A stretch of DNA of 64,000 bases from NCBI GenBank assembly GCA_021158525.1, contig JAGGUL010000031.1:6955-70954 (forward strand), read 5' to 3'. The notes under the pieces are model-generated. The model had not been told where the DNA came from. It saw only the letters and a program-made list of their open reading frames with translations, and did no database searches. The DNA is from Candidatus Hydrothermota bacterium (GTDB taxonomy: Bacteria > Hydrothermota > Hydrothermia > B15-G9 > DRBW01). Position 1 is the stretch's first letter. Every line of letters begins with the position of its first letter. Made by a program: the position numbers and the translations under genes. Shown here one piece after another: positions 14,552 to 59,164 of the stretch.

Positions 14552-16228
14552 GTGGCATATATTTTGCATATCAGATCAGTGATGAGGGGCACCGATATTC
14601 ACCATAAGAGAGGATACCTGATGGCGATACTTATCGTGGCGGGTTCTCTCAACGCTGGGTTCAAGAGATTACCGGCGGATTTCCTGTTAAAGAAAAGGGG
14701 GTCAGGATTTAGCCAGCAGAAGGGAGAAGTCGCGCCTTTCGGGGGCTTTGGCTTCTTCGAGGCGCCGGAGAGAAATATGGCGGTGGGTTCTGGCGACGGA
14801 GAGCTCCTGGCGATCATCTTCAGCTCCCCATCGGGTGACACGCTCAATCCCCTCGGCGGAGTAGCGGTCGCTTACAGTACTGACGGAGGACATAGCTGGA
14901 CTAACCGCATTCTCTCGGATCATATGCTCTACAGAGCTTTCTCCGGGACATTCTGGGGCCCGGGCGGCGATCCCTGTTTCGCCTGGCAGGAAACCGCTCT
15001 CAGCGGGGACAGCCTCACTACGATTCTTTATTTCGCCGAGGATACCTCTTTCCCGGAGGGAAATCTCGCGATTCAGTCCCTGCCGGGGTCTGACATAACC
15101 GAGCCATGGATGCCATCCCTCTCAGTGAGGGATTCCGTCGTCCTGATCACAGCAGTTAACCTGACTGAAAACCGTTTTTCCTACATCTGGAGATCCATTG
15201 ACGGGGGCGCCTCCTTCATCATGGATACGCTCATGACCCCTGGAAACTATGGGGACCTCGGAAACTGGCAGGATCCACCCATAATAGCATTCGGGAGGGA
15301 TGGATTCGTAGCCTGCATCAACAACCTGAAGGTCCAATATGGCGATTACCAGGCAGTAACTCCCTTCTACACGGAATCTACCGATTGGGGTGAAACCTGG
15401 ACGGAGCCATTGAATCTCTGGGATGTAACCGGTGGAATTCCCTACGACTCGGCAGGGGGATGGTGGTATGGGTACAGCCTGGTGGTTGACACTGACAACA
15501 TTCCCCATGCTGTATGGAGATTCGCAAAGGGCGATAACGAATTCGGGGACATATGGGAATTCCACCCCACGGGAGGCGCTCCCGGAAACTGGTCCGGCTG
15601 GACCAGATCCCTGGTGGTAGGAGAGGGCGATGGAACGGAGACGGCAAGCTTCCCGCAGATATCCCTCGATCCGATAACAGACAACCTCGTTGTGACTTAT
15701 CTGAAGCTCGACGCGGCTTCACGCACGGATCCCCTGCTCTACTATGCCGTCTCCGAAGATGGGGCTCAGTGGTATGAAAGGGGACCGCTCAGTGTGGAGG
15801 CCCCCGTCTGGTTCGAGACCGGCATCGTCTCCCCCTATCTGCCTCTCATGGGACCTGTCGCAGAGGGAAATCTGGCTTATGTTTCTGCTGCCGGCGGATT
15901 GCTACATCACTCCTGGTACATCGATTACAGTCCAATGTCTGCGAAAGAGTTGGCGGGTATGCCGAGTCGTAATCAATTCAATGTTGAAATACTGGGAAAA
16001 GGGATCTTCGCCTTCTCTTTCAATCTAAAGGAGGCTGACTATATTGACATCATGCTTTATAATATAAGCGGTCGGTATGTGAGGACCCTGGGATCGGGGT
16101 TATTTGAAAGGGGCGTGCATAGACTCATCTGGGAAGGGGATTGCGGGATAAGTGCAGGAGTTTACATAGCGGTTCTCAGAGGTCGTAAAATCGGATTTAT
16201 ACCTTTGAAATTGATCCTCCCCCTATAG
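14552..16228 (+). CDS. Secreted BNR/Asp-box beta-propeller protein with a FlgD-Ig/T9SS-like C-terminal domain
   Basis: Asp-box motifs are STDGGHSWTN, SIDGGASF and STDWGETWTEP. The C-terminal ~80 aa (ILGKGIFAFSFNLKEADYIDIMLYNISGRYVRTLG...GVYIAVLRG) match the same sorting-domain pattern seen in two other proteins here. The true start is probably an internal Met that precedes the signal peptide. Confidence 0.6.
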   Translation: MAYILHIRSVMRGTDIHHKRGYLMAILIVAGSLNAGFKRLPADFLLKKRGSGFSQQKGEVAPFGGFGFFEAPERNMAVGSGDGELLAIIFSSPSGDTLNPLGGVAVAYSTDGGHSWTNRILSDHMLYRAFSGTFWGPGGDPCFAWQETALSGDSLTTILYFAEDTSFPEGNLAIQSLPGSDITEPWMPSLSVRDSVVLITAVNLTENRFSYIWRSIDGGASFIMDTLMTPGNYGDLGNWQDPPIIAFGRDGFVACINNLKVQYGDYQAVTPFYTESTDWGETWTEPLNLWDVTGGIPYDSAGGWWYGYSLVVDTDNIPHAVWRFAKGDNEFGDIWEFHPTGGAPGNWSGWTRSLVVGEGDGTETASFPQISLDPITDNLVVTYLKLDAASRTDPLLYYAVSEDGAQWYERGPLSVEAPVWFETGIVSPYLPLMGPVAEGNLAYVSAAGGLLHHSWYIDYSPMSAKELAGMPSRNQFNVEILGKGIFAFSFNLKEADYIDIMLYNISGRYVRTLGSGLFERGVHRLIWEGDCGISAGVYIAVLRGRKIGFIPLKLILPL

Positions 16229-16401: not shown

Positions 16402-17643
16402 CTAATCGGGGAATATCTTGCCGGGATTCATTATCCCAAGCGGATCGAAGGTCTTTTTCAATGCTTTTTGAAGCTCGATAAGCAACGGTTCCTGTTCGAG
16501 ATGGATGAAATCCTTTTTCAGAATGCCCACGCCGTGTTCCCCCGAGATCGTTCCGTCAAGATCGAGGGCGATCTTGTAAAGTTCGCCCACAGCCTTCAGC
16601 ACTTCTCCCTCCCTATCGCCAGAATAAAGAAAATTGACGTGGAGATTGCCGTCGCCAGCGTGCCCGAAGGTGGCGACGCCGATTCCAAGGCCCGATGCGA
16701 GCTCGCGGATCCTCCTGACGGCTTCGGGGATGTAGCTTCTCGGAACAACTATGTCTTCTGACCTGACCCTCTCGTACTTCTCCTCCAGGCTCGGAAAAAC
16801 CTTCCGCCTCGCATCCCACAGCCTGGCGCGATCCTTCTCGTCCCTCGAGGCGTAAATCTCAAGGGCGCCGTTCTTCTCGCAGATCCCGGCTATCTCCTCC
16901 AGCTCATCAAAGAGATCTCCTCTCCCATCGACTTCAATGAGAAGGAGGGCTTGAGTCCCATCGGGGAGGCTTCCGGGAAGTCTCTCGGCGATGTGAGCCA
17001 CAGATACCCTGTCGAGAAACTCGAGGGCGCGGGGCAGATATCTCCTCCTGATAAGTTCCGTCACCGTCTCCGAGGCTTTGAGCTCGTCGGGGAAGGCAAC
17101 GAGCAGTGTCTCGATCTGAGGTGGATCGGGGATCAGCCTCAACACGGCCTCGGTCAGCACTCCCAATGTGCCCTCAGAGCCCACAAAGGCAGAGACAAGG
17201 TCATAGCCGACGACCCACTTCTTTGTTCTCCTGCCGAACCTGACGACGCGTCCCCCTGGCAGCACCACCTGAAGCTCGAGGGTGTAATGTTTTGTTACAC
17301 CGTACTTGAGGGCTCTCGGGCCACCGGCATTCGTGGCGATGTTTCCGCCTATCATACAGCTGTCTATGCTGGCGGGATCAGGAGGGTAAAAGAGCCCAAC
17401 ATTCCGGACCTCGCGGTCGAGATCGCCCGTGATCACCCCGGGCTCGACCCTCACGTGGAGGTTCTCCGTGTCAATATCCAGGATTCGGTTCATCCTGTCA
17501 AAGACCAGGACGATGCCTCCGAGAAAGGGAACGCACCCGCCGGCAACTCCGGTCCCAGCACCCCGGGGAACCACTGGTATCCTGAACTTTTCTGCGAGAG
17601 AAAGTGCCCTGACCACGTCTTCCAGCCCCTCAGGATGAATCAC
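16402..17643 (-). CDS. FAD-linked oxidase (GlcD / D-lactate dehydrogenase family). The ORF as called begins at a GTG. The conserved N-terminus continues upstream to the ATG at 17772 but is cut by an in-frame TAG at 17665..17667.
   Basis: It has an FAD-binding PCMH domain (PVVPRGAGTGVAGG) and a C-terminal GlcD-type domain (GEHGVGILK). The 35 codons upstream in the same frame (MKGEIIRIFKEEIGENKVFDDEDHRRSYSADESGI*GEYLPDLVIHP) align with GlcD N-termini across the stop codon. Confidence 0.75.
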   Translation of the reverse strand: MIHPEGLEDVVRALSLAEKFRIPVVPRGAGTGVAGGCVPFLGGIVLVFDRMNRILDIDTENLHVRVEPGVITGDLDREVRNVGLFYPPDPASIDSCMIGGNIATNAGGPRALKYGVTKHYTLELQVVLPGGRVVRFGRRTKKWVVGYDLVSAFVGSEGTLGVLTEAVLRLIPDPPQIETLLVAFPDELKASETVTELIRRRYLPRALEFLDRVSVAHIAERLPGSLPDGTQALLLIEVDGRGDLFDELEEIAGICEKNGALEIYASRDEKDRARLWDARRKVFPSLEEKYERVRSEDIVVPRSYIPEAVRRIRELASGLGIGVATFGHAGDGNLHVNFLYSGDREGEVLKAVGELYKIALDLDGTISGEHGVGILKKDFIHLEQEPLLIELQKALKKTFDPLGIMNPGKIFPD

Positions 17644-17783
17644 AAGGTCAGGGAGGTATTCACCCTATATGCCCGACTCGTCAGCAGAATAAGACCTCCT
17701 GTGGTCTTCGTCGTCGAAAACTTTATTCTCGCCGATCTCCTCTTTAAAAATCCTGATGATCTCGCCCTTCATATCGCCGGCCT

Positions 17784-18752
17784 TTAGGATACATTTACGT
17801 TTCTGGCCCACTCCCTGTTATCAAGATACCATTCTACTGCCTTTCTCACGCCTTCCTCAATGGGCACTTCCGGCGTCCATCCGAGAAGCACATGGGCCTT
17901 TCCTATATCGGCCATTGTTCTGGGGACATCGGCGGGATGGGGCGGGAAATACTCGATCCCGGCCTTCTTGCCGAGATATTCCTCTATGAGGCCGATCACG
18001 TAATTGAGCTTTACAGGCCTGTTGTTCCCGAGATTTACAACCTCGTATCCCAACGGCCTGAGGCCGGCGATCGTGCCCCTCGCTATGTCGTCCACATAGG
18101 TGAAATCCCTCTCCTGATTGCCGTCGCCGAAGACGGGTATGGGTTCTCCCTCTGCGATGAGCTTTATGAACTTGAATATGCTCATATCGGGACGCCCGGC
18201 CGGACCGTAGACGGTGAAGTACCTGAAAACCGTCACATCGATGCCGTAAAGGTGGTGATATGAAAAGGTCAATGCCTCGGCCCCCTTTTTCGAAGCCGCA
18301 TAGACCGACAACGGGGTGTCGGTTACCATCGACTCGCTGAAGGGAGGTGAATTAAGCCCATATATGCTTGAGGTCGAGGCCAGTACGAACTTCTTCACCC
18401 CGTGATCCTTCGAGAGCTCCAGGAGGTTCAGGGTGCCCACGGTGTTGGTCTCGACATAAACCCAGGGGTTCTTCACGCTCGCCCTCACCCCCGCGCGGGC
18501 GGCGAGGTTTATGACCGCATCGAACTTCTCCGTCTCGAAAATTTCCTTCATCGCCCGAAAATCCACTATGTCGGCCTTGAGGAAACGGAATCGGTTGAGT
18601 TCCCTCAATTTCGCGAGCCTCCATTCTTTAAGCTTCACGTCATAGGCATCGTTGAGGTTGTCGACACCGAGAACTTCGTCGCCCCTTTCTGCAAGCATCT
18701 CGGCCACTTTATGTCCGATAAATCCCGCTGCCCCTGTGAGTAAAACCCTCAT
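17784..18752 (-). CDS. NAD-dependent nucleotide-sugar epimerase (UDP-glucuronate/UDP-GlcNAc 4-epimerase-like)
   Basis: 322 aa with a Rossmann motif (LLTGAAGFIGHKV) and a YxxxK catalytic motif (YAASKKGAE) of the extended SDR family. It is the first gene of the polysaccharide locus. Confidence 0.75.
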   Translation of the reverse strand: MRVLLTGAAGFIGHKVAEMLAERGDEVLGVDNLNDAYDVKLKEWRLAKLRELNRFRFLKADIVDFRAMKEIFETEKFDAVINLAARAGVRASVKNPWVYVETNTVGTLNLLELSKDHGVKKFVLASTSSIYGLNSPPFSESMVTDTPLSVYAASKKGAEALTFSYHHLYGIDVTVFRYFTVYGPAGRPDMSIFKFIKLIAEGEPIPVFGDGNQERDFTYVDDIARGTIAGLRPLGYEVVNLGNNRPVKLNYVIGLIEEYLGKKAGIEYFPPHPADVPRTMADIGKAHVLLGWTPEVPIEEGVRKAVEWYLDNREWARNVNVS

Positions 18753-19393
18753 GTCTCGACTCCTTTATAGTTAATAACCTTGATATTTCTCTTTTTCCCT
18801 TTTCTCTCGACCTTGTAAGCTATGTCGGCTACTGAAAAAAGAGGAACATCTGAAGAATTATCACTAAATACTTCAATAAAGTAATTATCTCCATTTCCTA
18901 TAAGTCTATGTAGTCTCAGAACTTTAATTTTCCCTCTGCATTCCTCACCAATTTTCCCCGTGAAATATTCACCCCTAATCGTCGCATGTGTGCCAAGTAC
19001 CTCTGCTGATATACCCAGAAACTCGCAAAACTCTTCAACCACAAATGCAAAAGAAGCTGAATTTATTATAACTCTATTTCTTTCCTTTAGATTCTTGTAA
19101 AAAATTGATAGGATTTCGGGATCTACAAATGCAGAAAATTTCGTATGCCAAAATCGCGACGTTAGACGTTTCACTTGGTTTAATCTTCTGCCCCTTAAGA
19201 AAAAAAAAGCAAAAAGTTTTTTTAATGCAAATGTACTCAACAAATTTACCTTATACATAAGAAAGAAAAGCAAAAAGGGCAGTAGTAGATAATGACGCCA
19301 CATTCTCGTAGCAAAGAAGAAAACCAATGGCAAAAAACTATCTCTTTTTGTGATGGTTCCATCAAAATCAAAAACTATTAATTTGTCTTTCAA
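18749..19393 (-). CDS. HAD-superfamily hydrolase (subfamily IB-like) with a hydrophobic segment
   Basis: DxD motif LIVFDFDGTITKRD. The coding sequence is AT-rich, unlike its neighbours. Confidence 0.5.
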   Translation of the reverse strand: MKDKLIVFDFDGTITKRDSFLPLVFFFATRMWRHYLLLPFLLFFLMYKVNLLSTFALKKLFAFFFLRGRRLNQVKRLTSRFWHTKFSAFVDPEILSIFYKNLKERNRVIINSASFAFVVEEFCEFLGISAEVLGTHATIRGEYFTGKIGEECRGKIKVLRLHRLIGNGDNYFIEVFSDNSSDVPLFSVADIAYKVERKGKKRNIKVINYKGVET

Positions 19394-20601
19394 AGTTTGT
19401 CTACCTCCAATAACGCACTCTGTACAGGATTGATACTTCCAGTTCTGAGAAATTTACTACCATAATAGAAAAATTCAAAAATGAAGGGATATAAATCATC
19501 TTTCCAGAAATCATCGTATATGTCGTTTTTAAATTTAAAAAAGTTAAAAATGGCGCGAAATGGATTAAGTGTGTGTTTAATCTCATCAATCACAGCTAAA
19601 ATATCTCCTAAAATCCACCTGGCTTTTACCCCAGTTTTATACTGCAACAAAGGATGAACGTCACCCTCAGCGGCGATCTTATAAAGAAAATAGGGAAAAT
19701 CAACGCCTGAAGCAACAGGTAATGCTAAAGAACCCCAGAAACGTGGGTTAACTTCTATAAGCCAAGCTTTTTTTTGGGCTTCATTATATTTAAACTCCAC
19801 CATTGCCACACCATGCCACTGTAGTGATTCAAGTAAATTAATCGCATATTTCTCAATAATCGGGTTCCTAGTTCCTACTCTCAATGTACTTGTTCCACCT
19901 GTGAAAATCTTTTCCCTCAATCGCTTATGGGTAAAAATTGCTCTTAACTCTCCCTTGTTAAAAAGAAGTGAAACACCATAGCCTGAACCAGCTACATATT
20001 CCTGAAGTATGGGGGGAACTACTGCATCTCTCTTGCCCATTTTGATTCTCCTTAATATTCCCAAAGCTTCTTCTTTAGAATGAGCATAAAAAACGCCTTT
20101 TGCGCTGTTGGTGTTAATTTGCTTGATTACAAGCGGATATCCGCAATTTTCCAGCAACTCCTCTGCTTCATAAAAGTCCTTAGGCATAAAAGTCTTAGGA
20201 ACAGGAATCCCCAAACTTTCCGCATACTTAATAACGCTGTCTTTTCTGTGAACCTTTAGAAGTTTATCAAAATCGGCTATCGGAACAATTATATCTGATT
20301 CTTTAAACAAATCAATAAATCTCGCTGCGACAAAAAGTTCCTCATGAACAGGCAAATAAATTCCGATCTTATTCTTTTTGCAATAATCTATAATTGAAAC
20401 AACAAATCCTCTCGGGTCCTCATAAAACGACGGGTACTTGATAAATCCTTTGCAGTACTTCGACATCCTAGACATAGCTATTGGAGAGCTATCACCAATA
20501 TATACATAAATTCCCTTTGTTGCCAAACTCCTTAAAATTATGTATGCAATCCTATTCCATCCGTAAGTCACAAGGACTTTTTTCCTATCCATTTTATTCA
20601 T
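19390..20601 (-). CDS. ATP-grasp domain protein (carboxylate-amine ligase-like) within the polysaccharide locus
   Basis: 403 aa with an ATP-grasp fold pattern (PLVIKQINTNSAKGVFYAHSKEEA ... MVEFKYNEAQKKAWLIEVNPRF). The coding sequence is AT-rich. Confidence 0.6.
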   Translation of the reverse strand: MNKMDRKKVLVTYGWNRIAYIILRSLATKGIYVYIGDSSPIAMSRMSKYCKGFIKYPSFYEDPRGFVVSIIDYCKKNKIGIYLPVHEELFVAARFIDLFKESDIIVPIADFDKLLKVHRKDSVIKYAESLGIPVPKTFMPKDFYEAEELLENCGYPLVIKQINTNSAKGVFYAHSKEEALGILRRIKMGKRDAVVPPILQEYVAGSGYGVSLLFNKGELRAIFTHKRLREKIFTGGTSTLRVGTRNPIIEKYAINLLESLQWHGVAMVEFKYNEAQKKAWLIEVNPRFWGSLALPVASGVDFPYFLYKIAAEGDVHPLLQYKTGVKARWILGDILAVIDEIKHTLNPFRAIFNFFKFKNDIYDDFWKDDLYPFIFEFFYYGSKFLRTGSINPVQSALLEVDKL

Positions 20602-20636
20602 GTTTCCATCGCCTGATTATTTCCCTGTTTTCACAG

Positions 20637-21872
20637 CTATTCAAAAGCATCGGCTTCATCCCTCTCATGCACTATGTTCGTATAACTAACTTCTCCAGGA
20701 TTCTGGAACAGTCGCTTCCTGCATTCGCTATAAAGCCTTTCAAGTTCTCCAAGAATCACATCAACTGAAAATTCTTTCACAACTCTTTTACGCCCAGCTT
20801 CTCCCATTTTTTTTCTTAAACCCGCATCGCCAATAAGGTTCGAAATCGCCTTTTTCAGAGCATGAGAATCTCCCACCGGTACAAGAAATCCGTTAATTCC
20901 GTCTTTTACCAAATCTTTACATCCCGGAGCATCCGTCGTAACAACGGGTTTCTGCATAGACATAGCCTCTAATATTGTCCGAGATAATCCTTCCCGATAG
21001 GATGGTAGCACATAAATATCAGTAATATAAAGAATTTCTCTGATTTCATCTCTCTTTCCCAAGAATCGAAGCTTTTCTGTACTATATTTTCTTATAAAAC
21101 TCTCTGGAATTGTATCAGGGTTGCCCTTATCTCTCCAGCCTACTACAAGGAAACAAACGTCATCGCGTTCTCCCAATATTTTATTCGCAGCTTCAACATA
21201 CTCCTTTATTCCCTTACCCCAATACATCCTAGCAATCATTGTAACAACCTTTTCTTCTCCAGTAAGCCCTAATTCATCTCTGAGTTTTTCGACTTTCTTT
21301 ACATCAACAGAGCTGGAAGAAAAATAGACTGTATCAACTCCTGATCCCCTGATAAGTCTCAATTTTACCTTCTTATTGCTTACATATTTCGAAAGTAGCT
21401 TAAGATCATCTGTGTTCTGAAAAATGACATAGTCAGCCATATTCAAACTATACCGATAAAAAGCCGTATAAATCCACTTTTTTAACCTTTTTTTATCCGA
21501 TGTACCGCAAGTTGTGTAAACATGCCCGAGGCCGGTTATGGTGTTTATGATGATCGGAATCCCCGCACGACGGCCGGCGAGAGTTCCGTAAAGGTTCGGC
21601 TTGTACGTGAAGGTATGCAGGATATCAAAGTTCTGTTTCTTGAAAATGCGATAAAGTTCGCCTATCGTCCTGGATTCTTTGAGGGGATTGAGGCTCCTCC
21701 TGTCTATCCCGTAGCTGATGACCTGGAAACCATTCCTCCTTAACCTGTCACTGTACTCCCCCTCGGGGACAAGGGCAAACACCTCAAATCCCATCTCCCT
21801 CAACTTTTTCATCCAGGGAAGCCGGAACAGATAGAGGTTCATATCGAGATGTGAGAGAAAGGCGACTCTCAT
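20637..21872 (-). CDS. Glycosyltransferase family 4 (GT-B)
   Basis: C-terminal GT4 motif ILYITDIYVLPSYREGLSRTILEAMSMQKPVVTTDAPG. The 3' half of the gene is AT-rich. Confidence 0.75.
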   Translation of the reverse strand: MRVAFLSHLDMNLYLFRLPWMKKLREMGFEVFALVPEGEYSDRLRRNGFQVISYGIDRRSLNPLKESRTIGELYRIFKKQNFDILHTFTYKPNLYGTLAGRRAGIPIIINTITGLGHVYTTCGTSDKKRLKKWIYTAFYRYSLNMADYVIFQNTDDLKLLSKYVSNKKVKLRLIRGSGVDTVYFSSSSVDVKKVEKLRDELGLTGEEKVVTMIARMYWGKGIKEYVEAANKILGERDDVCFLVVGWRDKGNPDTIPESFIRKYSTEKLRFLGKRDEIREILYITDIYVLPSYREGLSRTILEAMSMQKPVVTTDAPGCKDLVKDGINGFLVPVGDSHALKKAISNLIGDAGLRKKMGEAGRKRVVKEFSVDVILGELERLYSECRKRLFQNPGEVSYTNIVHERDEADAFE

Positions 21873-23011
21873 CGTCTTTCAGCCTCCGTCCTGCTCTCCT
21901 TCCGTAAGAGAAGTTCTCCGTAGAGATCGAGCAGTCTCTGCGCCGTGCTCGATATGGAATAATCCGCTGCGATTTTCATTCTGGCTTTTCTGCCCATCTC
22001 ATCGAGCTCTTCCCGATGTGCAAGGGCATTGAGGATCCTCTCCCGGAGTGCATCGGGATCTCCCGGTTCCACGAGCCAGCCACTAATGCCATCTTCGATA
22101 AGCTCGGGAACGCCCCCGACCCTGGTCGCTATCGCGGGCCTGAAACGTGCCATCGCCTCGAGGAGGACCATCGGAAGGCCCTCCCAGAGAGAGGGCATAA
22201 CCAGGAGGTCAGCGGCATCCATGAGGAGTTCCACATCCCGCCTGAATCCGAGAAAACGGACCGTTGGCTCGAGACCCAGCTCAGCGGCCAGCGCTTTTAG
22301 CCTCTCTTTCAGCGGGCCATCCCCGGCAATCAGACAGAGGAACCGGCCGACCTTCACCCCTGCCAGGGCCCGAATCAGAACGTCGAGGCCCTTCATGGGC
22401 TCCAGCCTGCCCGCGTATAGCAAAAGGAAACCATCGACATCTAATCCGAGCCTCTTCCGCGCCTCAGCCCTGCTCACGGTTTTCTCTGGCAGCTTTACGC
22501 CGTTGGGTATCACCGATGTTTTCCCTTCAAGCCCCGGGATCCAGGCGAGAAGGCCTTCCCTGACGTTCCTGGACACTGCCACGATCCTGTCAAATTTCCT
22601 GTAGACGAAGGCCTCCACGGGCCTCAAAAGCGGGAATTCCCTCCTCCTGTTGTGAACGCTGTGCTCCGTATACACCCACTTCCATCTCTTCCTCGGGACG
22701 GGGAGAAATGCAGCATACCAGCTGGCGGGGAAAAGGTGCACGTGGATGAGATCGTATTCCCTTTCCTCGAGGAGTTTTCTCAACTTCGTAAATCCCGCGA
22801 GGGCATATTTTTTCCTCAGGCCGAGTTCATGTACAGGGATACCGGTCAGCCTGAGCTCCTCGGACAGATACCCCCCATCGTACAGGAGGGCAATCTCCGG
22901 GCGCACGGGAAGACCAGATTCCCTGAAATACTCAACCGTGTTGTACAAAACCCTCTCTGCGCCCCCAGCCCTGAGCGAGTCTATTACGTAGAGGACTCTG
23001 ATATCCCTCAT
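21869..23011 (-). CDS. Glycosyltransferase family 4 (GT-B)
   Basis: EX7E-type motif DLLVMPSLWEGLPMVLLEAMARFRPAIATRVGGVPELIEDGISGWLV. Confidence 0.75.
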   Translation of the reverse strand: MRDIRVLYVIDSLRAGGAERVLYNTVEYFRESGLPVRPEIALLYDGGYLSEELRLTGIPVHELGLRKKYALAGFTKLRKLLEEREYDLIHVHLFPASWYAAFLPVPRKRWKWVYTEHSVHNRRREFPLLRPVEAFVYRKFDRIVAVSRNVREGLLAWIPGLEGKTSVIPNGVKLPEKTVSRAEARKRLGLDVDGFLLLYAGRLEPMKGLDVLIRALAGVKVGRFLCLIAGDGPLKERLKALAAELGLEPTVRFLGFRRDVELLMDAADLLVMPSLWEGLPMVLLEAMARFRPAIATRVGGVPELIEDGISGWLVEPGDPDALRERILNALAHREELDEMGRKARMKIAADYSISSTAQRLLDLYGELLLRKESRTEAERR

Positions 23012-53134: not shown

Positions 53135-56100
53135 TTAACGCACAACGGCGAAGAAATCCTTTTTCTTTGACTGAGTTCCATCGGAATAACGCGCCTCAAC
53201 TATGTAGAGATAAACGCCGTTCTTGACTTCGCTTCCGGCAGCATTCTTGAGGCCATCCCAGGCTATTTCTCGGTCGCTCCCGGCCTGCAGATCGGCCTCT
53301 GCCCTCCAGACAAAGTTGCCCGAGAGGTTGTAAACGGATATCCTGACATGGGCATCTTTGGGGAGGGAGATCCTGAACTTGTTGTCAGTCAGGTTCATGG
53401 GCTTGGGTGCCGAGACCTCGAACTCCGGAGGTCCCACAAATACGGTGAACCTGACGGTATCGGAGCTGTTGCCAAAATCATCGAGCGAGAAGAGCCAGAT
53501 CTCGTTGGGAATCCCATAGGTCAGCTGTACGTCGGTAAAGGTGAAGGTGCTGTCTATAGCCGCCCTCGTCGAATCTCTGAACTCGGAGTTGACGAAAAGC
53601 ATGACGAGGGCATAGGGCTCTGTCTTCCCCGAAATGGTGAGGGTGTCGTTCGACGTCCGGTCGGGTATGTTCATCGAGGCCGGTGCGGGAGGCGGAACTG
53701 TGTCCACGAGATAGATGAACCTGTTTTTGACGAGAAGGGAATCTCCAACGGAATTCTTGGCACTCACGATTATATAGAAGGCCCCATTATCCGAGCCATC
53801 GACGGCCAGCGGGACATCGATATACCAGGCATAGGTACTGTCATTGAGCGTGTCGGCAACGCCATCGAGAGTATCGTTGAGGCCCTTCGTGAGATACACC
53901 GAGATATCCAGCAGGCCAGCTCCGACCCTGTCGCGCAAAACGGCGACCGCCCCATCGATCTGAACCCACACCGTGTCTCCATTTCCGACTTCGATGAGGT
54001 CACCGTGGGTCGGCTTCACATAGGTAATGGCACTGAGGGGTTTCCAGTAATAGAAATCAAGCGTGTCTATGCGAATATTGCTTGCGAGATCGCCGAACAT
54101 GCGGAAAAGATGGTAGGCCCCCTCGGCGACGAAATTGCCGACGATGTCGAGAAGGACGGTATCGCCCATAAACCTCGTTTCGAGGGCTACGCTATCATAA
54201 GCTGCGTCCCAGAGGGCAAAGCGAGTGTGAGACGTGTCAAGGCCCGACAGATCGCTGACCACGAAGAGAAAACTATCGGGCACTGTGTAAAGCGTGTCGC
54301 CCTCCTGAATCGATGCGAAGACAATCTGAGGCAAACCCGTATCCAAGAGAAAGTGGGATTCGTAGACATCTCCCGCCGTGGAATCATTGGCCAGAGGGAA
54401 AACCTTCATGCTGTAGGTGCCATTTGCGGTAAGAGGGCCTGAAAGTTCCAGGGTGAAAGTCCAAAGGCTATCTTCGGCGCTGAAACTCATCTGTCCGTCG
54501 ATGAGGGAATCAGATGGATCGAAAAGCTGTATGTAAGAATTGGCCGTATCTATGCCGCTTCCCGTCCTGTCCAGAACAAGGGCGGAGACCGAGCTCACCG
54601 AGTTCACAACAGCCCCATCTGCCGGAGAAGTCGAGATGACAATGGGCTCCCTGTCGGGTACGGTAAAGGTGTACACGAGATCTACCGAATGGCCGGCTCT
54701 GTCAGAGAGGTGGAGGGAAAGGCTGTATTCCCCGCCGGGGAAGCCGGCTCCGGGATCTATGTGCCAGACGAGGCGTCCCTCGCCGTTTCCGAGATCGACC
54801 CTCGAGAGATAACCGGGCACACCGGTGGAATCGGGGTAAAGCAGGACGAGGTAAGAAGCTTCCAGGTTAACCCCCGAAACCGCTGAAATCCCCTGATAGA
54901 GATCGCTTACCACCGCATAAACGCTGTCCCGGGGTACGACTCCGATGGCTCCAGAATCGGGATAGATCTCAACCACATGGGGCGGCCTCGAGTCGTAGAT
55001 AAAGACGAATGTATCGGGGTTCGAAGGGCTCAGAAGATGGCCTGCCAGATCCTGTGCGTAAACGAGAAAGCGATAGAGCCCATCGGCCGCTCCGTTGGGC
55101 AAAATGGGAGAGGAAAGAGTGAACGTTATAGTATCTCCCGAAAGGCTGTTCGCACCTGGGACAGCCTGACCGTTGTAGTTCTCCAATTCCACCCGGGTCA
55201 GCGTTGTGTCTGGATTTATTCCGCTCCCCGACTGATCCTCGAGAATGACCTGTACGAAATAAAGGGTGTCAGCGACGAAGCCCGAATCGGAAGGGTAAGT
55301 TGCCAAAACGTAAGGAGCGCTGACATCGAGCAGGAAAGACCAGCTCGAACTATCCTCGTTGAACACGTTATCGAACAGCCTGACCGAAATGGTGTAGTTT
55401 CCGCCGACTGTCAGAGGAGATGAGAGAATGTAATAAAGTGTGTCGCCGTGGGTTTCGGCCGTGCCAGGAAGGCTATCGCCATTTTCAGTGATCACATATA
55501 TCTCAGAGGCCTGGTAGTTCACGCCCGAGGGCTCCCTTCCGGAAACGACAGAGTCGCTCGGCAGTATCCAGACCCAGCTCACCTGTTCGCCAACGGTGGC
55601 ATTGGGTGCCGGGAAGCTTGCCACGACAACCGGAGGCCTCGTGTCGAATATAAAGGTGGTCTCCAGAGTATCGGAGTTCCCCGCGTTATCGGCGGCCGTC
55701 GCGGTTATAAAGTACCTGCCGTCATCGGAGCCATCGGTCCTCAGCGGAGGATAGGGAATAAATGTGACCGTGCTCTCTGCCATCGACGTGTTGCCGTTGA
55801 CAGGTCCCTGAGGTCCTGTCAAAAACAGGGACGAAAGGGATGTGTTGGGCCCCGAGAGCTGATCCCGCAGCACCATCAGCACGCTGTCTACCCTGCTCAG
55901 ATAGGAGGAATCCTCGGGGTACAGGTAAATCTGCGGGGGTGTCCTGTCGAGGGTAAACTGAGTGCTGTCGGTCCCTATGTTTCCAGCGGAGTCAACGGCA
56001 GTGACCACGGTGTAGTAATTGCCATCGGCTAAATCGAGAATGCCGCTTCCCGCCTTGCCGGACTTCGATTTCATGTTCGTGACTGCACCGCTCACGACAA

Positions 56101-59100
56101 AGAGAAGCGTATCGGGCTCAAGCCTTATGACCTGCCCTGGCACCAACGAACCATCCCTTTTGAGCGATATGTTGCTCGCGCCGAGATTGACCCCGGAAGT
56201 GAGGTCGCTTATCCTCGCCCACACCGTATCCATCTGAGCCAGATTCACGAGTCCCTGGGGATAGAACTCGACCGCGCTCGGGGCCTGAGTGTCATAGGTA
56301 AATCTCAGGGTCGTCGGGTTCTGGGGTTCGAGGGGCCAGCCGGCGGCATCGGTAGCTGTGACGACGACTGTGTAGCTGCCGTCGTCGGATCCGTCCTCAG
56401 AGAGCGGCACGGTGAATTGATAAACTGCGCTGTCTCCCTCGAGGCTCAGGCTGCCGGGCACCGATTGGCCTCCCGGGCCTATTACAGTCATGGTCACCGA
56501 TTCAACGCCGCTGCCGTTGCCGTCATCGAAACGCACAACCACGCGGTCGATGCTTTCCACGACATAGCTGCCGTCGGAAGGAAAGCTGGAAGAGATAACA
56601 GGGCCTTGGAGGTCGAGCAAAAAGCCCATGGACAGGGAATCACGGTTGCCGGCGTTATCGACTGCCCTAACGAAGACCTCGTAATTTCCATCCTCGCTCA
56701 GAGTGTCGCTCAGAACCCAGAAAACGGTATCTCCTGAGGTGACTTTCTGCCCCGATACGGGAAGGCTGTCCCTGTAGAGCCTGACGGAACTCGCCGAAAA
56801 ATCGATTCCGGAACTCTCCCTCCCGGGATTGATATCAGAGAGAACCGCGAAAACAGCCGATATAGGTGTTGAAACCAGCCCTCCCGATGGATTGACCTCT
56901 GCTATGACTGGTTTCTTGGTATCATAGATGAACTCCCCCTCAAGTGTATCTGTGTTTCCGGCGACGTCCGATGCCGTAAGGGTGACGTGATAGCTGCCGT
57001 CTTCAGTGCCGTCAGTCGCAAGCGGCGGGTCGGGGACAAAGATGATGACGGTATCCCTCACGTAGGTGCTTCCGGCCACCGCGCCGAGGGGACCCGTGAG
57101 CTGAAGGACAGCCGCGGACATGTCCACACCCGAAAGCTCGTCGTGGAGGACCGCGTAAGAGCTGTCAAGGACATTAACAAAATCAGAGTCTGAAGGATAA
57201 ATCGAGGCTATCGGAGGCCGGGTATCAAAGGTGAACGTCAGCGTGTCTTCCTCAACGTTTCCCGCACTATCGCGCATTTCAACCCGTATATCATAGATGC
57301 CATCGTCTTCTCCACCGGGCACGAGGGGCTCCGTGAGGACGTATTTCAGCGTATCGGGAGGAAGGCGGTTCAGGGTCCCCGCGACCAGAACCTCGTCCTT
57401 TAGCAGCCTCAGATCCGACGAATCGAGATTCACGCCCGATAACTCATCCCACATCGCGGTCCTTATATCGCTGAGTGTATCGGTAACATAGCTGCTATCT
57501 GAAGGAGTCGAAAACAAGAGAACCGGTGCCGTGCTGTCGTAGAGGACATAGAGCGTATCGGACGACGTTCCTCTGTTCATAACCTCGTCGTACGGAACGG
57601 CGAAAATGTAGTTATCGCCCTCCACGTAGGAAACGATGTAGCTGAAGTATCCCGTCAGAGTGTCGGCATTAGCCGTGCCGAGAAGATGGCCGTTCCTCAT
57701 GATATCAAGGCGGCTTCCGGGCTCGGAGAACCCCTTCAGGGTATCGGTGGAATCCGATGTGGGAGTTGAGAGTGAAAGCGTATCGAGATCAGGCGCTCCA
57801 GGGGGCAGGTTATCGATCCCCACCTCAGTGGTGGCCTGGAAACCATCGCCTGTCAGGGGATCGTAGAGGTCGACGACGATCGTATACGTGGTATCGCTTC
57901 CGGGCGCGAGATAATCGCCCTCATCGTTCTTCCCGTCGAAGGGGACAGAGTGAGTCCCTCCCGATTGGCTCTCGGACTCTATGAGGGTTCTGACCAGCGT
58001 CGTCGAATCGAAAACCGAGGAGGAATTGTAGATCTTGATCGTAACCTGGGCGTCCTCGGAGAGGTTATAGGAAATCGTAGCGACGTCGAACTGGCCGTCG
58101 TGGTTCTCAGGCGATATGACTGGTGGAGTCACGGTCAGGTCTGACAGGGAAGTCGGAACCGAATTTGCCACAACAGAACCCGTGAACTGGTCAAGGTTGT
58201 AGGCATCGTCCTCAAGGAATATCTTGTAAGTGTAAAGCCCATCGGGATAGGGGCCAGGCCCCCAGAGCACGGAATAGGTATCGTCGCCGTGAAATTCCTG
58301 ATAAAAATTGTGCTGAAAGACCTCATTGCCCGTGCTGTCAAGGATCGTTACGGTGGCGTTTCCGGTGAAAGCGTAAAGGTAAAGTATGGCAGTATCGCCT
58401 TCCGCCAGCTCATCGGCCCAGTAATCGAGGCTCTCAAACCTGTTGGAAAGGTCTCCAACCCTGTTGAGAAGGGCCGGTGTTTCCTCGACCGTGACATCGA
58501 CTATGGTGTTGTTCCAGTCTATGAAGTGAAGGGTCACGTTATCCGTGGTGAAATGGTGGGGCAGAAGGGTAAAATAAACAGGGAAAGGCGGCATCGTCGG
58601 GGAATTATCGGGAGTGGTGATGTACGTGTTGCCGGAGGCGGTTCCGATGACGGTCAAAACCGCTATCCTCCCCGAAGGCAGAAGATAGGAATCGTAGCCC
58701 GGCGGGCTGGTGTTGGACGCCGTGAATTCTATCCTCAGATAATCGTCAACCCCGTCGTTGTCAGGACTGAAGGGATTGGGAACCGCGGAAATAGAACTGA
58801 GAGAGGGAGGAGTCTTGTCGATGACCACCATACTGGAAACGGTGTCGATGGGTGTGCCCAGAGTGTCCCAGCCAAATATGAGGAAGGTATAGCTCCCGTC
58901 AGCATAGCCGCCCCCATCCCAGAGAAGGCTATGCGAACCGGAGCTCAGCAAAGTGCTGTCGATGAGAGTGTCGGGCGGAGAACCCTGGACAATGAGCCTT
59001 ATATAGGCCGGACCCGAAAGGCTGAAGCCGATCTGGGTTGTATCAGCCCTGCCGTCGCCGTTGGGAGAAAATGGATTGGGATTCACATAAACCCCGTTAA

Positions 59101-59164
59101 CCTGTGGCAGGGCGCTCAGAGCGCCCGCAACTGCCAAAAGGATCAAAAACTTACCCCATCTCAT
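53135..59164 (-). CDS. Giant (2009-aa) secreted cell-surface protein with many Ig-like/cadherin-like repeats and a FlgD-Ig/T9SS-like C-terminal sorting domain
   Basis: Signal peptide, then about 100-aa repeats (…DT.PP…S..P.D…SG.D…, repeated more than 12 times). The C-terminus (FRISLPKDAHVRISVYNLSGNFVWRAEADLQAGSDREIAWDGLKNAAGSEVKNGVYLYIVEARY) matches the CTDs of the BNR and Kelch proteins. Confidence 0.7.
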   Translation of the reverse strand: MRWGKFLILLAVAGALSALPQVNGVYVNPNPFSPNGDGRADTTQIGFSLSGPAYIRLIVQGSPPDTLIDSTLLSSGSHSLLWDGGGYADGSYTFLIFGWDTLGTPIDTVSSMVVIDKTPPSLSSISAVPNPFSPDNDGVDDYLRIEFTASNTSPPGYDSYLLPSGRIAVLTVIGTASGNTYITTPDNSPTMPPFPVYFTLLPHHFTTDNVTLHFIDWNNTIVDVTVEETPALLNRVGDLSNRFESLDYWADELAEGDTAILYLYAFTGNATVTILDSTGNEVFQHNFYQEFHGDDTYSVLWGPGPYPDGLYTYKIFLEDDAYNLDQFTGSVVANSVPTSLSDLTVTPPVISPENHDGQFDVATISYNLSEDAQVTIKIYNSSSVFDSTTLVRTLIESESQSGGTHSVPFDGKNDEGDYLAPGSDTTYTIVVDLYDPLTGDGFQATTEVGIDNLPPGAPDLDTLSLSTPTSDSTDTLKGFSEPGSRLDIMRNGHLLGTANADTLTGYFSYIVSYVEGDNYIFAVPYDEVMNRGTSSDTLYVLYDSTAPVLLFSTPSDSSYVTDTLSDIRTAMWDELSGVNLDSSDLRLLKDEVLVAGTLNRLPPDTLKYVLTEPLVPGGEDDGIYDIRVEMRDSAGNVEEDTLTFTFDTRPPIASIYPSDSDFVNVLDSSYAVLHDELSGVDMSAAVLQLTGPLGAVAGSTYVRDTVIIFVPDPPLATDGTEDGSYHVTLTASDVAGNTDTLEGEFIYDTKKPVIAEVNPSGGLVSTPISAVFAVLSDINPGRESSGIDFSASSVRLYRDSLPVSGQKVTSGDTVFWVLSDTLSEDGNYEVFVRAVDNAGNRDSLSMGFLLDLQGPVISSSFPSDGSYVVESIDRVVVRFDDGNGSGVESVTMTVIGPGGQSVPGSLSLEGDSAVYQFTVPLSEDGSDDGSYTVVVTATDAAGWPLEPQNPTTLRFTYDTQAPSAVEFYPQGLVNLAQMDTVWARISDLTSGVNLGASNISLKRDGSLVPGQVIRLEPDTLLFVVSGAVTNMKSKSGKAGSGILDLADGNYYTVVTAVDSAGNIGTDSTQFTLDRTPPQIYLYPEDSSYLSRVDSVLMVLRDQLSGPNTSLSSLFLTGPQGPVNGNTSMAESTVTFIPYPPLRTDGSDDGRYFITATAADNAGNSDTLETTFIFDTRPPVVVASFPAPNATVGEQVSWVWILPSDSVVSGREPSGVNYQASEIYVITENGDSLPGTAETHGDTLYYILSSPLTVGGNYTISVRLFDNVFNEDSSSWSFLLDVSAPYVLATYPSDSGFVADTLYFVQVILEDQSGSGINPDTTLTRVELENYNGQAVPGANSLSGDTITFTLSSPILPNGAADGLYRFLVYAQDLAGHLLSPSNPDTFVFIYDSRPPHVVEIYPDSGAIGVVPRDSVYAVVSDLYQGISAVSGVNLEASYLVLLYPDSTGVPGYLSRVDLGNGEGRLVWHIDPGAGFPGGEYSLSLHLSDRAGHSVDLVYTFTVPDREPIVISTSPADGAVVNSVSSVSALVLDRTGSGIDTANSYIQLFDPSDSLIDGQMSFSAEDSLWTFTLELSGPLTANGTYSMKVFPLANDSTAGDVYESHFLLDTGLPQIVFASIQEGDTLYTVPDSFLFVVSDLSGLDTSHTRFALWDAAYDSVALETRFMGDTVLLDIVGNFVAEGAYHLFRMFGDLASNIRIDTLDFYYWKPLSAITYVKPTHGDLIEVGNGDTVWVQIDGAVAVLRDRVGAGLLDISVYLTKGLNDTLDGVADTLNDSTYAWYIDVPLAVDGSDNGAFYIIVSAKNSVGDSLLVKNRFIYLVDTVPPPAPASMNIPDRTSNDTLTISGKTEPYALVMLFVNSEFRDSTRAAIDSTFTFTDVQLTYGIPNEIWLFSLDDFGNSSDTVRFTVFVGPPEFEVSAPKPMNLTDNKFRISLPKDAHVRISVYNLSGNFVWRAEADLQAGSDREIAWDGLKNAAGSEVKNGVYLYIVEARYSDGTQSKKKDFFAVVR

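Follow-up and report, generated by a model that had tools for sequence, protein, structure and literature searches.

Reinitiation of translation is known to occur after early amber mutations in Escherichia coli lacI, where it gives rise to restart proteins. Among the GlcD-like FAD-linked oxidases, no enzyme is known to depend on pyrrolysine. Solved structures from this group include LctD (7qh2_C) and a glycolate oxidase (9qgz_A), and both can be aligned with the product of a gene from an uncultured hydrothermal 'Candidatus Hydrothermae' bacterium, which is the subject of this report. When the single stop codon inside this gene is masked, the resulting protein aligns with LctD over residues 6 to 453 (E = 1.6e-90) and with the glycolate oxidase from residue 11 onward (E = 3.3e-84); since the LctD alignment runs from residue 6 to residue 453, the homology crosses the internal stop. 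The gene lies in a 64-kb stretch of DNA (64,000 nucleotides), referred to below as the window. We consider it very probable that the internal stop is a genuine nonsense mutation of very recent origin (K36amber), carried by one clonal genotype of the bacterium, and that the allele is a null or a strong hypomorph.

Layout of the interrupted oxidase gene

The features of the locus, defined by translation and by Pfam searches, are as follows.

16402..17772, minus strand: GlcD-like FAD-linked oxidase gene, whole; 456 codons plus stop, broken at codon 36
17668..17772, minus strand: the 35 codons 5' of the internal TAG, encoding conserved N-terminal helices and part of a loop
17667..17665, minus strand: internal TAG, codon 36 of the oxidase; the sole in-frame interruption
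17643..17641, minus strand: GTG, the first in-frame start past the internal TAG; start of a 413-aa product according to gene callers
16404..16402, minus strand: the oxidase's own terminator, also TAG
17784..18752, minus strand: NAD-dependent sugar epimerase/dehydratase-family gene, upstream of the oxidase; 322 aa

The oxidase frame starts at an ATG (17772..17770, minus strand), 11 nt past the stop of the preceding epimerase-type gene; given this spacing, the two genes are probably cotranscribed. The downstream GTG lies 21 nt past the internal TAG and corresponds to residue 44 of the full-length oxidase. A sequence-only reading of this DNA had described a single TAG inside a GlcD-family frame, with the ATG at 17772, the GTG at 17643, and the 11-nt spacing from the epimerase stop, and both the coordinates and the translation agree with that description. 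It had also held that conservation of the reading frame spans the stop, which is borne out by the LctD alignment and by intact orthologues of 455 to 456 aa that align end to end.

In the stop-masked 456-aa product, Pfam identified FAD_binding_4 (PF01565) at residues 41 to 179 (E = 1.1e-40; 139 bits against a cut-off of 26.4) and the C-terminal cap domain FAD-oxidase_C (PF02913) at residues 217 to 453 (E = 7.2e-63; 213 bits against a cut-off of 21.2). Judged by homology, the 35 codons upstream of the stop are coding sequence and not a chance open frame.

Gene neighborhood

The neighbors of the oxidase gene are the epimerase gene upstream and, downstream, a convergent gene for a 558-aa protein without a family match. 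At orthologous loci the epimerase gene is likewise immediately upstream, and downstream there are a convergent gene for a protein of 548 to 561 aa and one for a large GGDEF/TPR protein. The epimerase-oxidase junction is kept in relatives.

Several further observations were made on this region. The 558-aa ORF (14552..16228, plus strand) gave no match in Pfam (precomputed) or NCBIfam. Its counterpart, of 548 to 561 aa, holds the same position in close strains and in the sister lineage; the more distant locus L005 has a 174-aa gene instead. Upstream of the epimerase gene, polysaccharide-synthesis genes vary by lineage (18749..23011, minus strand, in the window versus L001:1-5026 and L005:1-5015). 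The window carries HAD, ATP-grasp, and GT4 genes at this place, and the sister lineages carry GFO_IDH_MocA, heparinase II/III-like, and GT4 (plus acetyltransferase) genes. As the upstream genes vary and the epimerase-oxidase junction is conserved, the region resembles a surface-polysaccharide cluster that varies in content but has a constant border. The HAD-family gene (18749..19393, minus strand) is a 214-aa ORF starting at TTG in the window and in the closely related contig L176, and it is called as only 97 aa on identical DNA in two other contigs, L007 (1602-1895) and L010, so its start codon is uncertain. In L014:502-1478 (JGI 3300005098), from a strain with AAG at oxidase codon 36, the epimerase is called in two pieces of 175 and 150 aa; this could be due to a frameshift or a sequencing error. 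Elsewhere in the window, a very large ORF of 2009 aa (53135..59164, minus strand) has a canonical GGAGG site before its ATG.

Predicted enzyme type

From its sequence, the gene product is predicted to be a stand-alone FAD-linked oxidase of the VAO/PCMH superfamily, within the GlcD/LctD/D-lactate dehydrogenase branch, with a putative activity as an FAD-linked 2-hydroxyacid dehydrogenase of the D-lactate or glycolate type. Scored on the intact allele P0126, the protein is below the cut-offs of both the TIGR00387 glcD equivalog (413.2 bits versus 567.9) and NF008408 (308 bits versus 897). No glcE/glcF or EtfAB-type partner genes adjoin the oxidase gene in the window, and the same is true at the orthologous loci. 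A tblastn search of the 64-kb window with the intact protein found no paralogue able to compensate for a loss of the enzyme.

Codon 36 in relatives

A database search with the oxidase returned thousands of full-length relatives, of which 120 homologues were listed; none of the 120 is shorter than 438 aa. The best relatives, P0001 (92% identity, 456 aa) and P0002 (75% identity, 455 aa), each cover 100% of the query, and the intact orthologues that are 92 to 99% identical share the gene neighborhood. In an alignment of 21 sequences, D31 is invariant and S33 and P41 are invariant or nearly so, and these residues lie on either side of the stop. The stop's own column is hypervariable, and relatives have P, A, G, K, E, S, T, or D in it, never a stop. 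The proposal that the stop sits inside conserved coding sequence thus holds for the residues on both sides, but the stop codon itself occupies a loop position at which relatives differ widely.

The sequence-only reading had suggested that orthologues be compared at codon 36. This comparison, made at the DNA level, gave the following result.

L176 (99.06% DNA identity to the window over 7232 nt): AAG (Lys)
L013 to L015 (about 96 to 97% DNA identity to the window): AAG (Lys)
L001 to L004, sister lineage (about 83% DNA identity to the window): GCC (Ala)
L005 and L006, next relative (protein 75% identical): GGA (Gly)

Lys 36 is present in four distinct protein alleles of one 90% cluster (P0126, P0130, P0131, and P0132), and the others have Ala or Gly. 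Because AAG is found in close strains, and GCC or GGA farther out, the TAG is the derived state, one A-to-T transversion away from AAG. On these comparisons, the TAG arose within a lineage that differs by under 1% from a strain with the gene intact.

A pattern scan of genome and metagenome contig collections, using a 48-nt context with NNN at the codon, gave no match, and the collections apparently lack these contigs. A related-locus search of the same two collections with P0126 was uninformative on the allele; among the matches listed, identity did not exceed 48%, and generic FGHAGDGN-type motifs dominated. As a separate observation, codon 140 of the oxidase (17354..17356, minus strand), right after the near-invariant Cys139, encodes Met in the window allele and in its closest relative, P0131. 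Residue 140 is Thr or Ser in every other aligned relative; the Met is a change specific to this lineage, at a conserved place in the FAD-binding domain.

Age of the allele and selection

The window oxidase gene differs from that of L176 at 20 of 1371 nt and from that of L013 at 30 of 1371 nt, in both cases by substitutions only. Substitutions were polarized with outgroups and other alleles, over about 1038 nonsynonymous and 330 synonymous sites. Besides the stop, the window branch carries about five or six nonsynonymous and five to nine synonymous changes, numbers too small for a relaxation of selection to show. The low nonsynonymous ratio for these numbers of sites indicates that the branch was mostly under purifying selection and that the stop is very young. 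There are no further lesions in the gene, and the contigs that bear the TAG are all identical, with zero divergence among them since the mutation. A very recent pseudogenizing mutation had been among the explanations put forward from the sequence alone, and it has gained support from the AAG codon in a strain that is 99% identical over 7.2 kb and from the undamaged remainder of the gene.

Predicted consequence for the protein and possible restart at the downstream GTG

If the TAG is a nonsense mutation, codon 36 would have changed from AAG (Lys) to TAG by a single A-to-T transversion, and ribosomes starting at the ATG at 17772 would be expected to stop after 35 residues. Full-length enzyme would then be absent, or would be made in trace amounts through ordinary stop-codon leakage. 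Truncation after 35 residues would make the allele a null or a strong hypomorph, that is, a pseudogene that has only just begun to form. A minority of the terminating ribosomes may reinitiate at the GTG at 17643.

The structural context was taken from an AlphaFold model of the intact orthologue P0001 (mean pLDDT, 93; pTM, 0.90). Residues 1 to 42 of the model (pLDDT, 89 to 97) consist of two helices (residues 2 to 13 and 22 to 26) and an ordered loop, and codon 36 falls in this N-terminal loop. The first β-strand of the FAD-binding domain comprises residues 43 to 45, so the GTG, at residue 44, lies inside the strand. An N terminus that is both ordered and conserved, with its helices and with D31, S33, and P41, supports loss of function.

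The same observations bear on the alternative that the mutation is real and the gene still works, through reinitiation at the GTG at 17643, giving a 413-aa enzyme without residues 1 to 43 that is active enough to be maintained. We regard this as unlikely, but it is the alternative that survives best. The GTG is the first in-frame start and lies just 21 nt past the stop; the truncated product would lose only the first three positions of Pfam FAD_binding_4, and, as the TIGR00387 glcD model has its first position at residue 44, it would retain the whole span of that model. PGAP and other gene callers annotate precisely this 413-aa protein, and elsewhere the gene shows no damage; undamaged downstream sequence, however, is expected equally of a brand-new pseudogene. 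No Shine-Dalgarno motif was found at working distance before the GTG: the preceding 25 nt are ATAGGGTGAATACCTCCCTGACCTT, and the sequence directly before the GTG ends in ...GGGTGAATACCTCCCTGACCTT. In this respect the GTG is unlike the starts of many window genes, which have GGAGG 5 to 9 nt upstream, and it could be used solely by termination-coupled reinitiation. The restart product would also be deprived of two well-ordered helices, D31, S33, P41, and the first residue of the strand at 43 to 45, and it would be shorter than any of the 120 listed homologues. That the gene is otherwise perfectly intact is also compatible with an allele that gives some functional product. On balance, loss or strong reduction of enzyme function is the most likely outcome of the K36amber mutation, and a functional restart product is the less probable one.

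Occurrence of the TAG in other assemblies

The TAG allele was found in six other contigs (L007 to L012), all of which are 100% identical to the window over 2.1 to 7.2 kb. They derive from ENA ERZ23499535 and ERZ23499525 (BioSamples SAMN18353074 and SAMN18353078), Logan SRR14000036, and JGI 3300016457 (two contigs) and 3300017593. Five of the six also have a separate call for the 35-codon ORF that precedes the stop; the sixth (L009) begins inside the gene, upstream of the stop. The identical 413-aa product, starting from the GTG at 17643, is MCD6086714.1 in the NCBI MAG and was called by PGAP and by other gene callers. The TAG datasets probably sample one clonal population, and they may share the same few physical samples, which leaves a small residual doubt over a systematic error common to them.

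These findings weigh against the possibility that the TAG is a sequencing or assembly artefact and that the organism truly carries the sense codon AAG at this site, as the sequence-only reading had considered. A one-base difference from AAG is the kind of change that an error makes; against this, the same TAG is present in contigs from the JGI, ENA, and Logan pipelines, the NCBI MAG encodes the same 413-aa product, and the site is outside any homopolymer or repeat. Since different pipelines and accessions agree on the TAG, an assembly error is unlikely, and we consider an artefact of either kind highly improbable.

Possible decoding of the TAG

Stop usage was counted on a greedily chosen set of 52 ORFs in the window. 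TGA ends 25 of these, TAA 17, and TAG 10, with the oxidase gene itself among the TAG enders. Other genes had been said to terminate normally at TAG, so that the code would not be globally altered, and these counts agree on both points; global reassignment of TAG is ruled out by the stop usage and by the oxidase's own TAG terminator. A frameshift, an intein, or an intron is likewise ruled out, as the alignment to intact alleles is colinear and of equal length (1371 nt), with substitutions only. Searches of the whole window with ARAGORN and with Rfam (gathering threshold) found only tRNA-Arg(ACG) and tRNA-Asp(GTC), and no suppressor tRNA, tRNA-Pyl, or other RNA family. Folding of 121 nt around and after the stop was no better than that of shuffled sequence (z = +0.92 for the downstream 100 nt). 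A literature search found no paper linking Hydrothermae with pyrrolysine.

Programmed decoding of the TAG into a full-length enzyme, whether through insertion of pyrrolysine, a naturally occurring amber suppressor tRNA, or read-through driven by the sequence context, is consistent with the intact frame on either side of the stop, but it is the least credible of the explanations. No relative has the stop, not even a 99% identical strain, and a special residue would have no plausible purpose at the hypervariable loop position where the stop lies. TAG is a frequent genuine terminator in the window and ends the oxidase gene too. The window holds no tRNA-Pyl, suppressor tRNA, or Rfam element, the RNA past the stop forms no stable structure, and no paper was found that links Hydrothermae to pyrrolysine. 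The earlier suggestion of programmed read-through or recoding at this one site finds no support here. A specific form of it, in which an amber-decoding tRNA (suppressor or tRNA-Pyl) is encoded elsewhere in the genome and codon 36 is read through enough to give a functional oxidase, seems just as far from probable; if true, such a tRNA would explain the abundance of an early stop in the population.

Discussion

A recent nonsense mutation is an ordinary explanation, and the significance of the finding is small beyond annotation. For MCD6086714.1, annotated as a 413-aa "FAD-binding protein", a better description is what remains of a 456-aa gene disrupted by a nonsense mutation. Recoding of a stop codon would be of note in a candidate phylum, and the evidence here is against it. 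As this case shows, a comparison of near-identical strains in public metagenomes can quickly tell a fresh nonsense allele from genuine recoding.

The locus can be compared with several known systems. With the GlcD/LctD/D-lactate dehydrogenase branch, the oxidase shares FAD_binding_4 and FAD-oxidase_C domains, a full length of about 456 aa, and an N-terminal extension that is conserved among homologues. It differs in falling under the glcD equivalog cut-off, in having no adjoining GlcE/GlcF or EtfAB-type partners, and in following a sugar epimerase gene at the edge of a polysaccharide-synthesis cluster. As in pyrrolysine decoding, an in-frame UAG lies inside an otherwise intact enzyme gene; unlike the UAG of that system, the codon here is not conserved in orthologues and serves freely as a stop, and the 64-kb window contains no pyl genes or tRNA-Pyl. 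The resemblance to lacI restart in E. coli lies in an early amber codon with an in-frame GTG within about 20 nt as a possible restart site. In contrast to lacI, the GTG in the window has no Shine-Dalgarno site, a restart product would be missing structural elements that are conserved, and restart is here a prediction from sequence.

The closest match is with strain-specific nonsense (amber) pseudogene alleles, which share with the window oxidase a one-base change from sense to stop early in the gene, confined to one genotype with intact sister strains, and in which, as here, no further lesions have yet accumulated. We see no substantive difference from such alleles; the only oddity is the identical recovery of the TAG in several metagenome assemblies, which indicates that the allele is abundant in its habitat and is not a rare variant.
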